Below, in pieces: positions 1-5,431 of a stretch of 5,916 nucleotides of DNA; positions within the stretch are counted from its first letter, which is position 1; the number at the start of each line of letters is the position of its first letter. The DNA lies in the IMG/VR virus record IMGVR_UViG_2703718798_000018; one strand, written 5' to 3'. This DNA comes from a virus. Taxonomy: Duplodnaviria; Heunggongvirae; Uroviricota; Caudoviricetes. The position numbers were made by a program, and so were the translations under genes. The notes under the pieces are model-generated. The model did not search any database and was not told where the DNA came from. It saw nothing but the letters and a program-made list of their open reading frames with translations.

Positions 1-252
1 TTACCATATTTCGTCACCCGCAGGGGTGGATTTACCCCAGACATCCTGCTCGCTAAGTTCCGCGGCGTTCATGTCACACTGTGCCAGCAGTTCATCAAGC
101 GAGTAGCGCCTGGAGATGGGTGTCAGAATCAGTTGGTTGTTGCTCACCTGCGCTTCCACGCTCTGCCCCGGCTGTAAGTTAAGTTCTTTCATTACGATAT
201 TGGGAATGACCATACCTGCACTGTTCCCCCATCTTTTTATGGTAATACGCAT
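1..252 (-). CDS. chpS: ChpS (ChpBI) antitoxin of the chpSB toxin-antitoxin pair, MazE-like; complete, stop codon at 1-3
   Basis: Translation from the ATG at 252 (MRITIKRWGNSAGMVIPNIVMKELNLQPGQ...DEIW, 83 aa) matches my recollection of E. coli K-12 ChpS essentially residue for residue. AAGGAG sits 6 nt upstream on the minus strand. The ORF track's 85-aa form starts at an upstream GTG (258). Not alignment-verified. Confidence 0.85.
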   Translation of the reverse strand: MRITIKRWGNSAGMVIPNIVMKELNLQPGQSVEAQVSNNQLILTPISRRYSLDELLAQCDMNAAELSEQDVWGKSTPAGDEIW

Positions 253-261
253 CTGCACCTC

Positions 262-490: not shown

Positions 491-541
491 CAAATAGTTA
501 CGAGTTCAAAGTAGTTCGGAATAGTGCCATTTAGTCCCCGT

Positions 542-1537
542 TTATGGGCAAAATCTGGACAACTCCGCAACCGGATTGAACCTTACCGCGTCCTGGAGAT
601 AATCAGGTGCAAAGTGCGCATAGGTCATTGTCTGCTGAATTGTGCTGTGCCCTAAAATACGCTGAAGGGTAATAATGTTCCCTCCATTTATCATGAAATG
701 AGTTGCGAATGTGTGCCGTAAAACATGCACAGACTGACCGACTGGTAAATCAGGCCGCACAGTCCTTATTGCACTTCTGACTATCGCATAACTGGGGTTC
801 ATTAATCTTCCCGTCGCTTTGACTTTAATCAGAGATTCAAGATCTTTAGCTATAGGAATAACCCGCCGCGATCCATTCTTTGTCTCCATGAAAATAACCT
901 TCCCACCAATTATGTGTTCACCTTTAATATTGGCAACTTCACCCCAGCGCCCGCCTGTAGCCAGGCTTAACAATACAGCCTTAAGATTATCGCCAGATAA
1001 AAGTGCGGTTAGCCTGGGAATATCATCATGTGCAAGATAAGCCATTTCCGGCTGATTAATTGTTAGCTTGCGTATCTCGTGAAACGGGTTATCACCCACA
1101 AACTCTTCAACATCAATCAGCTTTTCAAAGAAACCGCTCATCATTGCACAATAACGATTTACCGTTGACTGCTTAATTCCGCGATTCATTAATTCAAGGC
1201 GATATCTGATAATATTTTTTCGGGTTAAGTGGTCACTTCTGTTAATACCAAGCTCTTGCATATCACGAAGAACCGCTTCAATTCTGACCCGATTCATCGC
1301 GCCATAACGATGATTCTTACCGTGGTACACCCACCACAGTTCCAGAAGATCGCTTAACGCTTTACGTTCAATAGGTTTTTCGACCCAGTCCTTATCGTGA
1401 TAATGCGTCAGAACATGGCGTTCATACATCGCCGCTTCACCACGGGTAGGAAATCGCCGCCGAAATCTTCTTCCTTCAGATCCAGCAGGCCGCACGTCCA
1501 CACAGTATTTGCCATCAGCGAGCTTCTTAATCGACAT
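542..1537 (-). CDS. int: Tyrosine site-specific integrase, P2 Int family (331 aa)
   Basis: N-terminus MSIKKLADGKYCVDVRPAGSEGRRFRRRF and C-terminus HVLRHTFATHFMINGGNIITLQRILGHSTIQQTMTYAHFAPDYLQDA closely resemble P2 Int as I recall it, including the R/H/R/Y catalytic region. Start chosen at the ATG at 1537 with a G-rich RBS; the ORF track's start at 1573 adds 12 residues with no homology support. Confidence 0.9.
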   Translation of the reverse strand: MSIKKLADGKYCVDVRPAGSEGRRFRRRFPTRGEAAMYERHVLTHYHDKDWVEKPIERKALSDLLELWWVYHGKNHRYGAMNRVRIEAVLRDMQELGINRSDHLTRKNIIRYRLELMNRGIKQSTVNRYCAMMSGFFEKLIDVEEFVGDNPFHEIRKLTINQPEMAYLAHDDIPRLTALLSGDNLKAVLLSLATGGRWGEVANIKGEHIIGGKVIFMETKNGSRRVIPIAKDLESLIKVKATGRLMNPSYAIVRSAIRTVRPDLPVGQSVHVLRHTFATHFMINGGNIITLQRILGHSTIQQTMTYAHFAPDYLQDAVRFNPVAELSRFCP

Positions 1538-1603: not shown

Positions 1604-1903
1604 TTAACCAGTCTTCTTGCCGGAGTGGGATGATTCCGCTTCGCTTTGCCCAATGTGTGCGAGAGCCGGTACCACCTGCCCGGCCTTTGGTTCGACCTCA
1701 TCGAACAAAAACCAGTCACGGTATTTACGGAAACGAGCGTGCCGCAAAAGAAGGATCCCAAAATCAAGAGGCATCTTAGATTTCCCACTTTCATAGCCAT
1801 GATATGTATAGTAATTAATTCCAATTAAATCAGATAGTTCCTTCATTTTCATCCGTTCGGACTCTCTGATAAGTTTTAATTTCTCATTTTGCGGTATTGA
1901 CAT
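1604..1903 (-). CDS. C: Immunity repressor, P2 C-type (99 aa)
   Basis: Translation from the ATG at 1903 is 99 aa, the same length as P2 C. The C-terminal VPALAHIGQSEAESSHSGKKTG resembles the P2 C tail as I recall it. GGAGG lies 11 nt upstream on the minus strand. Position (upstream of int, same strand, divergent from cox) fits P2. Confidence 0.8.
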   Translation of the reverse strand: MSIPQNEKLKLIRESERMKMKELSDLIGINYYTYHGYESGKSKMPLDFGILLLRHARFRKYRDWFLFDEVEPKAGQVVPALAHIGQSEAESSHSGKKTG

Positions 1904-1932
1904 AATTTTTCTAACCTCCAATAATTTTTGTG
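1897..1932 (+). promoter_or_regulatory. Candidate early promoter Pe: -35 TTGACA (1897-1902), 17-nt spacer, -10 AATAAT (1920-1925)
   Basis: Hexamers read directly. The -35 is a perfect consensus and the -10 matches TATAAT at 5 of 6, with optimal spacing, and the orientation points into cox. The -35 overlaps the C start codon. The leftward C promoter could not be placed confidently. Confidence 0.5.
1902..1929. promoter_or_regulatory. Candidate repressor operator: perfect 9-bp direct repeat ATAATTTTT at 1902-1910 and 1921-1929 (19-bp period) bracketing the Pe spacer and -10
   Basis: Repeat read directly from the sequence. P2 C is known to bind directly repeated half-sites around the early promoter rather than a palindrome. 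Assigning these particular repeats as the operator is inference. Confidence 0.45.
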
Positions 1933-2010
1933 TATAGCAACACAAGAATAGTCGCAATTGGTTCTACATGGTCCCTATTCGAAAAAGGGGCCAATAACGG
2001 AGGATACCAG

Positions 2011-2436
2011 ATGCAAGAAGTCACTCAAAACGCGCCTGAATCGCCTGCCGAAACACAGTGCGATCAGTTGACAGATGCGCCAGAAACCGCACACCAAAAG
2101 ACCGGGCGCAAAGCCCCTGAACGCCAGGAAATCAGGCTTTCACAAAACCCTTCTCATCTCCTGTCAAAAGAAGGGTTTGCGATGTATATCGGCAAGACCG
2201 TTGACGCCATCGTGAGCATGGCAAAAGCAGGGAAATTACCCGCTGTGTACATGGCGGATCCCCTCAAACCTGGCGGAAACGCCGAACTTTACATCAACCG
2301 GAAAGCATGGGATGAAGCCTGCGATCGACTCACTGAAAACGCACCGCAAGAATGGCACGAATGGGAAAACCGACTTTTTTTATTTAAGCCAGCAGCTGGT
2401 TCACGGAATAAACGCATCAGTAAAAAAGCTGCGTGA
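2011..2436 (+). CDS. cox: Cox-like excisionase/early repressor with an N-terminal extension of about 50 aa (141 aa total)
   Basis: The core GFAMYIGKTVDAIVSMAKAGKLPAVYMADPLKPGGNAELYINRKAWDEA resembles P2 Cox (about 91 aa) as I recall it. Start chosen at the ATG at 2011 with GGAGG 6-7 nt upstream; the track's 1930 start is a GTG inside the promoter region. Confidence 0.6.
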   Translation: MQEVTQNAPESPAETQCDQLTDAPETAHQKTGRKAPERQEIRLSQNPSHLLSKEGFAMYIGKTVDAIVSMAKAGKLPAVYMADPLKPGGNAELYINRKAWDEACDRLTENAPQEWHEWENRLFLFKPAAGSRNKRISKKAA

Positions 2437-3107: not shown

Positions 3108-3350
3108 ATGATCGAAGCCTACAAAATACTTATTAATAATGCGTTGCAGCGTTATCACTTCGAACTCGCAAACCGGGGTGTAACCCGGGACGAAGGACTT
3201 CGTAACTCACTGCGGGGCGCAATTATGGGACTGTATAACTGCGCACTGGGCAGCGATGACCGCGAAGCACTGGAAGAATTAAAAGTTATTGTGGCCGAAC
3301 TGTTTGAAGGTGAAATCGTTGAGCCTTATTTCACAGAGGTAGCAGCATGA
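3108..3350 (+). CDS. Hypothetical early protein (80 aa)
   Basis: ATG with an AAAGGA RBS; its stop overlaps the next start in an ATGA arrangement. Confidence 0.6.
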   Translation: MIEAYKILINNALQRYHFELANRGVTRDEGLRNSLRGAIMGLYNCALGSDDREALEELKVIVAELFEGEIVEPYFTEVAA

Positions 3351-3472
3351 GCGTATTTCTTTCATGGGTGATTCTGATTATTTCCGTGCTTATGGCGATT
3401 GGCATTATGCGAATTATCGAAGCGCTGAAAAATATCGAATCTTTATTTACTGGCGAAGAACGCCGTAAATAA
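3347..3472 (+). CDS. Small hydrophobic peptide (41 aa: MSVFLSWVILIISVLMAIGIMRIIEALKNIESLFTGEERRK), predicted single transmembrane helix; not in the supplied ORF track
   Basis: Translated by hand. The ATG at 3347-3349 overlaps the TGA stop (3348-3350) of the upstream ORF, giving ATGA coupling. A 20-residue hydrophobic stretch is followed by a charged tail; stop is TAA at 3470-3472. Confidence 0.45.
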   Translation: MSVFLSWVILIISVLMAIGIMRIIEALKNIESLFTGEERRK

Positions 3473-4328: not shown

Positions 4329-4883
4329 ATGAGACTTACACCAATGGGAACGCCAAGCAAAGCTCCGGCACATGTAAAGCCGTGGACACAACAGGAAGAT
4401 CGGTTACTCATCTCGCTTTATCAGGAACACAACACACATCAGTTCGCCGAACGAATTCAGCGAACCCGTAAAGCAGTTATGCACCGGATTCGTTTTTTAC
4501 GTAATCGTGGGCTGATTGGCCGCAAGAGAAAAGCACCACTGAGTACAGAAGTCATAGCCTTTCTTATTAAAAACCGTCATGTAAAAACCGCACAGGAAAT
4601 GGCTCTGGAAGCGGGATGCAGTGAGTGCACAGTGAGGTACACACTGCGTAAACGGGGTTACAACCTGCAAAAATGCGGTGAGAACCACCATTGCGCCAGA
4701 TACAGCGATCATCTGGTTGAGCTGGTCACGGAGCTACGCGACATACACAACATGACGTTCTGCATGATCGCTGAACACATCAACAGCACGACACAAATGC
4801 ACATTAACGACGATACGGCGTTTCATCTCTACCACCGCCGCACCGCAACTGACGCAGTGCTCCGTGAACTGTTACCGGGCTGA
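4329..4883 (+). CDS. Hypothetical protein (184 aa) with a basic helix-rich N-terminal half and a Cys/His cluster; putative DNA-binding regulator
   Basis: GGAGG sits 8 nt upstream of the ATG. The sequence contains C-x2-C, then 15 residues, then C-x5-C (CSEC...CGENHHC). The DNA-binding assignment is based on composition and motif only. Confidence 0.65.
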   Translation: MRLTPMGTPSKAPAHVKPWTQQEDRLLISLYQEHNTHQFAERIQRTRKAVMHRIRFLRNRGLIGRKRKAPLSTEVIAFLIKNRHVKTAQEMALEAGCSECTVRYTLRKRGYNLQKCGENHHCARYSDHLVELVTELRDIHNMTFCMIAEHINSTTQMHINDDTAFHLYHRRTATDAVLRELLPG

Positions 4884-5003
4884 GTGATCATCATGCACAC
4901 ACAAAAAAACCGCTTGCCAGCGTTCGCCTGGTCGGGTTACAGTTTTCCCGCACCTCATAAAACGGGTGCCGGGATTTCCACCCCGCCGATAACCAAAGCG
5001 CAC

Positions 5004-5024
5004 AACCGCGCCAGCGGTTTTTTT
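5004..5024 (+). terminator. Candidate intrinsic terminator ending the cox-side operon
   Basis: AACCGC-GCCA-GCGGTT hairpin (6 bp, 4-nt loop) immediately followed by a run of 7 T (5018-5024), about 120 nt downstream of the 184-aa ORF stop. Confidence 0.5.
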
Positions 5025-5065
5025 GTGCGTACTGTATTGCCACGTCTTTTTCGCGTCAGAATTAT

Positions 5066-5141
5066 GGCGGGGCGTACGGGGCCGACTTCGGTCGGGCCGG
5101 GTTCTTTGGTTACCGGTTGTGGAAACCCTGTACGCCTCGCC
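5066..5141 (+). ncRNA. Candidate structured RNA element (about 76 nt): 16-bp closing helix with two G-U wobbles, enclosing a UUCG-capped hairpin and a second short hairpin
   Basis: 5066-5081 (GGCGGGGCGTACGGGG) pairs with 5126-5141 (CCCTGTACGCCTCGCC): 14 Watson-Crick pairs plus 2 G-U, possible only in a plus-strand transcript. Inside are CCGAC-UUCG-GUCGG (5082-5095) and CCGG-N12-CCGG (5097-5116). A possible promoter TTGCCA (5037-5042), 17-nt spacer, AATTAT (5060-5065) lies just upstream. Neither reading frame across it looks protein-like. Prediction only. Confidence 0.3.
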
Positions 5142-5167
5142 ACCCCGAGTTTTCCACCTCTGGATGG

Positions 5168-5184
5168 TGAGTTTTCAAAATTCA
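5168..5184. promoter_or_regulatory. Near-palindrome TGAGTTTTCAAAATTCA upstream of the 75-aa gene; candidate operator or promoter element
   Basis: 8-bp arms with one mismatch around a central C. GAGTTTTC also occurs as a direct repeat at 5147-5154 and 5170-5177. It sits 20-35 nt upstream of the AAGAGG RBS of the ORF at 5204. Confidence 0.3.
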
Positions 5185-5203
5185 CAACCAAAGAGGCCAC
5201 ACC

Positions 5204-5431
5204 ATGGCAAACCGCAAACAACAGCGCGCCCGCGCTGAGCGTCTTCACATCCGGACTGAAATCAACCGCAGACTCCATCGGGCTGCATCTGTCTCCTTCA
5301 TCATGCAGTCAAACGTATTACACCGACTTAACGACGGTATCGCTGCCGGGTATTACGCGGCAGTCTTCAGCTATCTGGCCGAAGACCTGGCAGAACTGCA
5401 AGACCTTATCAACCAGCAACACCACCACTAA
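5204..5431 (+). CDS. Hypothetical small protein (75 aa) with a highly basic N-terminus and an acidic C-terminus ending QQHHH
   Basis: ATG with AAGAGG 7 nt upstream; the N-terminus MANRKQQRARAERLHIRTEINRRLHR is strongly basic (possible nucleic-acid binding). Confidence 0.55.
   Translation: MANRKQQRARAERLHIRTEINRRLHRAASVSFIMQSNVLHRLNDGIAAGYYAAVFSYLAEDLAELQDLINQQHHH

Follow-up and report, generated by a model that had tools for sequence, protein, structure and literature searches.

A long Cox protein with a predicted disordered N-terminal tail in a P2-like prophage of Escherichia coli

A cox-like gene in a P2-like prophage of Escherichia coli raises the question of whether the N-terminal extension of its 141-aa product is a genuine part of the protein and, if so, what it may contribute to a protein family whose P2 member has no such extension. 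The window, by which we mean the whole 5,916-nt stretch of DNA that was analyzed, is the left end of a P2-like (P88-like) prophage located beside the chpS/chpB toxin–antitoxin locus. A first-pass annotation had described a 141-aa Cox-like ORF at 2011–2436, and read the sequence ahead of its core either as an extra domain or as leader upstream of a non-ATG start. The ORF (plus strand, 141 codons and a stop) was recovered here with its N-terminal sequence exactly as quoted there. We conclude that this gene very probably encodes, from ATG 2011, the full-length Cox of a P2-like (Xuanwuvirus P88-like) prophage, and that the product is a member of a long Cox lineage with a disordered, bipartite N-terminal tail.

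A megablast search with positions 1500–2700 identified a 99.2% identical stretch in E. coli JNEC-KY202, in which RefSeq annotates chpS first, then a phage integrase and an HTH protein, and lastly a 'Cox family DNA-binding protein' of 141 aa. In the window, the following features precede cox.

1–258, minus strand: chpS.
542–1537, minus strand: P2-type tyrosine integrase, 331 aa (Pfam Int_N and Phage_integrase; annotated in relatives).
1604–1903, minus strand: C-type immunity repressor, 99 aa (phrog_147, E = 4e-33; HTH_19/HTH_3), divergent from cox.
1897–1925, plus strand: Pe-like early promoter TTGACA-17-AATAAT, 11 of 12 consensus matches.

In NZ_AP045178 the C-type repressor is annotated as an HTH protein and the ORF corresponding to 2011–2436 as a Cox family DNA-binding protein; in phage P88 the latter is gp03. 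[quoted passage not shown] The −35 element of the Pe-like promoter overlaps the start codon of C, as it also does in P2 according to annotation and sequence. Leader length is similar as well, with 107 bp between the C start and the cox ATG in the window, 105–118 bp in relatives and 114 bp in P2; by this switch geometry, a P2-sized leader is already present upstream of 2011. In one E. coli relative (L025, 1714–2392), two HTH genes encoding 97 aa and 85 aa take the place of the single C repressor between int and cox.

The cox-like gene itself has these start signals and parts.

1999–2003, plus strand: Shine–Dalgarno sequence GGAGG, 7 nt before ATG 2011, within the conserved element GGAG(G/A)ATAnCA(A/G).
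2011–2436, plus strand: cox-like gene, present in the ORF list (Pfam Phage_Cox, E = 1.1e-27; phrog_1831, E = 2.8e-50).
2128–2388, plus strand: Cox core, residues 40–126, predicted winged helix-turn-helix followed by two C-terminal helices (Pfam, AlphaFold2, Foldseek, dN/dS 0.01–0.06).
2389–2433, plus strand: basic C-terminal tail, residues 127–141 (PAAGSRNKRISKKAA), net charge +5, pLDDT 41–49.

The match to Pfam PF10743 (Phage_Cox) scores 96.1 bits against a cut-off of 27.5 and aligns residues 40–120 with profile positions 1–86 of 87, and the match to phrog_1831 (121 positions) covers residues 25–133. No NCBIfam model matches the protein. Among solved structures, P2 Cox (PDB 4lhf) is the sole significant sequence match, and it is also the best Foldseek hit (E = 9.4e-5, TM 0.70 on target) for an AlphaFold2 model built from a 61-sequence homologue alignment; this is a monomer model and cannot place the tail within a Cox filament. 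The predicted elements are β1 (50–52), α1 (53–60), α2 (64–72), β2 (78–82), β3 (91–96), α3 (97–109) and α4 (113–124), with pLDDT above 90 across residues ~50–110. This order agrees with the published topology of P2 Cox, β1-α1-T-α2-β2-L-β3-α3-α4, in whose crystal structure the first six residues are disordered (PMC3936717). On the grounds of profile matches and predicted structure, the Cox assignment is solid.

Alignment against the P2, W-phi and 186 proteins, which the first-pass annotation had proposed as a check, places P2 Cox Met1 at residue ~37–40 and confirms that P2 lacks the extension. Because homology to P2 Cox starts there, the extension amounts to ~39 aa relative to P2 Met1. The earlier estimate of a core beginning around residue 50 is right for the folded core, since the first ordered element, β1, is formed by residues 50–52, but it is too late for the start of homology. 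P2 Cox was described correctly as a protein of about 91 aa with an N-terminal DNA-binding region: it has 91 aa, with the winged helix at its N-terminus.

Compared with P2 Cox (91 aa; 4lhf), the window protein thus belongs to the same family and has the same predicted fold and topology, but the two are only ~29% identical, and P2 Cox has neither the ~39-aa disordered N-terminal tail nor the basic C-terminal tail of ~15 aa; by alignment, the latter is missing from W-phi Cox too. The 186 Apl protein is 22% identical in the alignment and also has no N-terminal tail. The recombination directionality factors Apl and lambda Xis, both small winged-helix proteins, bend DNA and bind to direct repeats in helical phase, and Apl, like Cox, is also a switch regulator (PMC7498355). 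Lambda Xis has an unstructured, partner-binding tail, but at its C-terminus (PMC3936717), whereas the disordered acidic and basic tail of the window Cox is N-terminal.

The protein is not of the short P2/W-phi type of Cox ('group 1': ~90 aa, with the winged helix within the first ~10 residues). It is assigned to a longer subfamily because it has 141 aa, aligns P2 Met1 at ~37–40 and begins its first strand at 50–52, and like that subfamily it combines a core with a variable N-terminal tail and a conserved distal start. A search of a 5.8-billion-protein collection returned 137 relatives, from E. coli, Salmonella, Yersinia, Erwinia, Rahnella, Pectobacterium, Serratia, Ewingella and Enterobacter. 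Tails were scored in 120 sequences (119 listed homologues and the window protein), and all 118 full-length homologues scored carry one, of 17–73 aa (median 32 aa) relative to P2 Met1. Two 102-aa Salmonella entries (P0076 and P0079) were considered as natural tail-less forms and rejected: in both, the ORF runs open off the end of its contig, and they start at a re-called codon because their contigs end within the tail-coding region. In the Salmonella contigs concerned (L029–L031), assemblies seem to break repeatedly inside this region.

An exhaustive search of representatives clustered at 50% identity found just 24 clusters, so the subfamily is compact; the same search gave no new functional lead. 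The same type of Cox, with tails of ~24 aa, is found in several sequenced Peduovirus phages, among them D8, 11W, 12W, S164, pro147, pro483 and Yersinia phages. Of isolated phages, Escherichia phage P88 (Peduoviridae, Xuanwuvirus) is the closest; its gp03 is 84% identical over all 141 residues and has the same start and the same neighbors; nothing substantive distinguishes the window Cox from P88 gp03 or from the 141-aa RefSeq protein. At least 1000 contigs carry the exact window protein under the name 'Cox family DNA-binding protein' (141 aa).

Nilsson et al. 2011 divide P2-type Cox proteins into two groups, of which group 2 is larger, is predicted to form a winged helix and has only six conserved residues in common with the P2-like group 1 (PMC3448106). 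We infer that the window lineage falls in this group 2. The larger winged-helix Cox described there fits the window subfamily, and the paper does not discuss what the extra length does (PMC3448106). The novelty that the first-pass annotation implied is not borne out, as the feature is typical of a large and already annotated subfamily; the 141-aa Cox is an ordinary, already catalogued member of its long branch.

Among the open-access papers searched, none studied an N-terminal extension of Cox. To our knowledge, all mechanistic work on Cox has used the P2, W-phi and 186 proteins, which have no tail. Cox proteins with charged tails that are predicted to be disordered are used by a large share of the P2-like prophages of Enterobacterales.

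Every computational test favors translation of this tail over a role as leader. The GGAGG had been identified earlier as the strong ribosome-binding site serving ATG 2011, and it is: besides ATG 2011, the in-frame starts are limited to GTG 1930, which lies without a Shine–Dalgarno sequence at or upstream of the predicted Pe transcription start, TTG 2068 (codon 20), also without one, and ATG 2182 (codon 58), which is already within helix 1 of the core. A start at ATG 2011 would give a tail peptide beginning MQEVTQNAPESPAETQ... We examined the DNA of 25 loci, comprising 13 species representatives from a genome scan together with Salmonella and E. coli contigs. The element GGAG(G/A)ATAnCA(A/G) followed by a start codon is kept in all 25, across about nine genera (E. 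coli, E. albertii, Salmonella, Yersinia, Erwinia, Rahnella, Pectobacterium, Serratia, Scandinavium and Pseudescherichia); the start is ATG in 22 loci and GTG in 3, and its distance from the Shine–Dalgarno sequence is fixed at 7–8 nt throughout. In many loci the start is fixed by a TAG in the same frame two codons before it. Five loci (L010, L011, L016, L018 and L019) have no alternative in-frame start ahead of the core.

The reading frame is conserved as well. In 21 non-redundant loci, the tail-coding DNA ranges from 69 to 207 nt and the tail frame contains no stop codon in any of them, compared with 27 and 69 stops in the other two frames; all length changes must therefore be multiples of three. 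Nei–Gojobori dN/dS in the E. coli set is 0.13–0.36 for the tail and 0.01–0.06 for the core, and between the window and P88 the tail shows an excess of synonymous over nonsynonymous changes (Fisher p = 0.002). In some other lineages tail dN/dS is 0.7–1.4. Overall, the tail is under weak purifying selection. Sequence-specific constraint on it is thus weak, since the ratio approaches 1 in those lineages, and the constraint seems to act mostly on frame, charge pattern and scarcity of hydrophobic residues. Constraint on such features, and not on exact sequence, is usual for disordered regions. The tail peptide could also be near-neutral in function. On this computational evidence, the annotation question is settled in favor of the 141-aa call; shorter starts in some records are artefacts, and longer ones probably are as well.

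Deposited cox starts in two phages deviate from this pattern. Those of D8 (L004, 1423–1794, ATG 1423) and S164 (L005, 1399–1785, TTG 1399) have no Shine–Dalgarno sequence and lie 5–10 codons upstream of the GGAGGATA(G/T)CAAA and GTG/ATG start that all relatives conserve. Both are probably mis-annotated, and the true products would be 118 aa.

The tail has two parts of opposite charge.

2011–2097, plus strand: distal tail, residues 1–29, acidic, T/Q/P/A/E-rich and predicted disordered; its sequence and length vary among homologues.
2098–2127, plus strand: proximal basic patch, residues 30–39 (KTGRKAPERQ), directly before the P2 Cox-homologous region.

An acidic, Q/T/P-rich and likely disordered stretch had been described. 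The disorder agrees with the predicted model, in which residues 1–40 have pLDDT 31–48 and no secondary structure (mean 31–39 for residues 1–29, and below 50 for residues 6–34); the acidity applies to residues 1–29, with a net charge of −6, but not to residues 30–39, with +3. Bulky hydrophobic residues make up 8% of the tail and 32% of the core. Across homologues the distal part has a mean charge of −4.5 and the last 10 tail residues a mean of +2.4. In E. coli and Salmonella sequences the basic run is of the K/R-K-x-P-E-R-x-E kind, and it is looser in the others. An acidic stretch followed by a lysine/arginine patch and then the core also occurs in more distant, Arsenophonus-like clades (P0133 and P0135).

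A P2-type Cox acts as a repressor of Pc, is needed for excision and inhibits integration. P2 Cox forms helical oligomers that wrap DNA with helically phased cox-boxes; in this way Pc is blocked, and at attP the excisive intasome is given its shape (PMC3936717). Two sets of phased direct repeats in the window lie at positions that correspond to the annotated Cox binding sites of P2.

1951–1980, plus strand: three 10-bp-phased direct repeats (GTCGCAATTG / GTTCTACATG / GTCCCTATTC) at the expected position of Pc, candidate cox-boxes.
504–543, plus strand: four 10-bp-phased GTNC repeats adjoining the 3′ end of int, candidate Cox site of the attP arm.

The units at 1951–1980 are of the GTnnC/T type, and their register is kept in 20 aligned loci. 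At 504–543, the pattern GTNC-N6 x3 gives 2 overlapping matches against 0.03 expected. Phased repeats recur at both positions, the presumed Pc region and the 3′ end of int, in related loci. By analogy with the P2 layout (PMC3936717), these repeats are candidate cox-boxes of the long-Cox subfamily, although the GTNC-N6 repeats are unlike the P2 cox-box TTAAA(G/C)NCA (PMC3936717). A matrix derived from them holds 6.4 bits and cannot discriminate sites, with 28 matches against 29 expected from shuffled sequences; it is of no use for locating further sites, those within the tail-coding DNA included. A conserved leader RNA stem-loop directly ahead of the Shine–Dalgarno sequence (GGTCCC...GGGGCC, 1969–1990) with apparent compensatory changes was also considered; it was dropped because RNAalifold on 20 loci gave no consensus pair and because the 10-bp-phased direct repeats explain the signal better.

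Judging from homology and context, the core would act like P2 Cox, oligomerizing on the 10-bp-phased repeats and thereby shutting off Pc and directing excision at attP. As for the tail, we tentatively suggest, by analogy with the charged tails of other DNA-binding proteins, that the basic patch adds DNA contacts and that the acidic segment moderates the binding of DNA or the growth of filaments, or engages a partner. The patch, located next to β1, could reach the DNA backbone or the minor groove; the acidic segment could damp DNA binding or the spreading of filaments, or could bind a partner, for instance Int. In that case the tail would adjust the switch, with no new activity added. Should it tune filament formation on DNA, or tie Cox to immunity type, that would be an incremental refinement of the model for the P2-type switch.

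Comparison of closely related prophages revealed that the tail lies within a recombining block. Six pairs of prophages (window/L023, L026/L027, L016/L017, L016/L020, L015/L019 and L003/L005) are otherwise ~95–100% identical and drop to 40–75% identity in one block, which begins at about −300 and ends at about +70 to +120, counted from the cox ATG (~1710–2130 in the window). This block spans the N-terminal HTH half of C, the Pe/Pc switch and the Cox tail, so that recombination swaps the tail along with immunity specificity. The central part of the tail (residues ~11–28) differs between immunity types, and among heteroimmune phages the Cox core and the candidate binding repeats stay constant. 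The joint exchange may be simple linkage between two conserved recombination anchors, or the tail may be matched to its switch.

The main rival reading is that the tail peptide is a functionally neutral passenger, that what matters is the encoding DNA, as a spacer in the hypervariable immunity block or a carrier of immunity-specific cis-acting sites, and that the frame is kept for the sake of the core. We consider this unlikely, though several observations speak for it. In all six pairs the right edge of the block falls exactly at the tail/core junction, whatever the length of the tail; tail dS exceeds core dS in several pairs (for example 0.75 versus 0.25, and 1.9 versus 0.41); and the near-neutral dN/dS of some lineages and the 17–73 aa range of tail lengths are also as expected of a passenger. 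Yet the charge composition is kept everywhere, dN/dS in the E. coli set is well short of that in those lineages, no full-length tail-less homologue was found in the subfamily, and no phased repeats or other recognizable sites were found within the tail-coding DNA (2011–2127).

A more doubtful proposal is that the tail is a functional, immunity-linked module, swapped along with the DNA-binding half of C and the Pe/Pc operators. Because it is exchanged with these elements and the core is nearly invariant, the tail could match its cognate switch; it might inhibit Cox itself as an acidic mimic of DNA, or it might contact the cognate C, Int or a satellite element. If this were true, the tail would set the threshold or the specificity of the lysis–lysogeny and excision decision.

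Production of two isoforms, one long and one P2-sized, by internal initiation or by proteolysis of the tail appears improbable. Disordered tails are frequently protease-sensitive, which is the sole point in its favor; the window has no internal start with a Shine–Dalgarno sequence, and several relatives have no internal start at all.

That the tail folds into a further domain and confers a new activity on Cox is very improbable. The PHROG 1831 profile does extend over part of the tail, to residue 25, and an N-terminal motif, M-Q-E-x-T/A-Q/K-N/T, recurs across genera. However, the low pLDDT was obtained with a 61-sequence alignment, the tail is poor in bulky hydrophobic residues and tolerates indels of up to ~50 residues, and no Pfam or NCBIfam domain was detected in it. 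The earlier suggestion of a Cox variant with an extra domain therefore stands with respect to the additional N-terminal sequence and fails with respect to the domain, which is predicted to be disordered.

The least probable reading, which we regard as next to excluded, is the other one offered at first pass, an untranslated leader with a non-ATG start near the core and a P2-sized product: it would fit the 91-aa and 90-aa Cox proteins of P2 and W-phi, with their N-terminal winged helices, and the 102-aa database entries, but those entries are contig-edge truncations, no homologue begins at the equivalent of P2 Met1, only TTG 2068 and ATG 2182 are available between 2011 and the core, and the 25 conserved distal start elements, the five relatives lacking any alternative start, the 21 stop-free frames and the P2-length leader upstream of 2011 all stand against it.

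Several further features were observed downstream of cox. A 76-aa ORF with its own GGAGG follows directly (2467–2697) and has no Pfam or PHROG match; it is called in L023, is not annotated in a near-identical RefSeq prophage (L001), and is absent from P88, where DUF4761 directly follows cox. A hydrophobic ORF of 41 aa at 3347–3472, whose P88 counterpart is annotated as a membrane protein, runs over the stop codon of the DUF4754 gene. A 184-aa protein at 4329–4883 has weak Myb/HTH matches (phrog_323, 'transcriptional regulator, D5-like') and precedes an isrK/C4 region, in which Rfam models identify, above gathering score, an isrK Hfq-binding RNA (4950–5024, 64 bits) and a C4 antisense RNA (5060–5147, 83 bits). 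These two RNAs are directly upstream of a 75-aa ORF (5204–5431). In the near-identical prophage, RefSeq names this ORF 'derepression protein' and has an 'ash family' pseudogene that overlaps the region. Together, the stretch 4950–5431 looks like a P1/P4-style module of C4 RNA and antirepressor within the early operon of a P2-like prophage.
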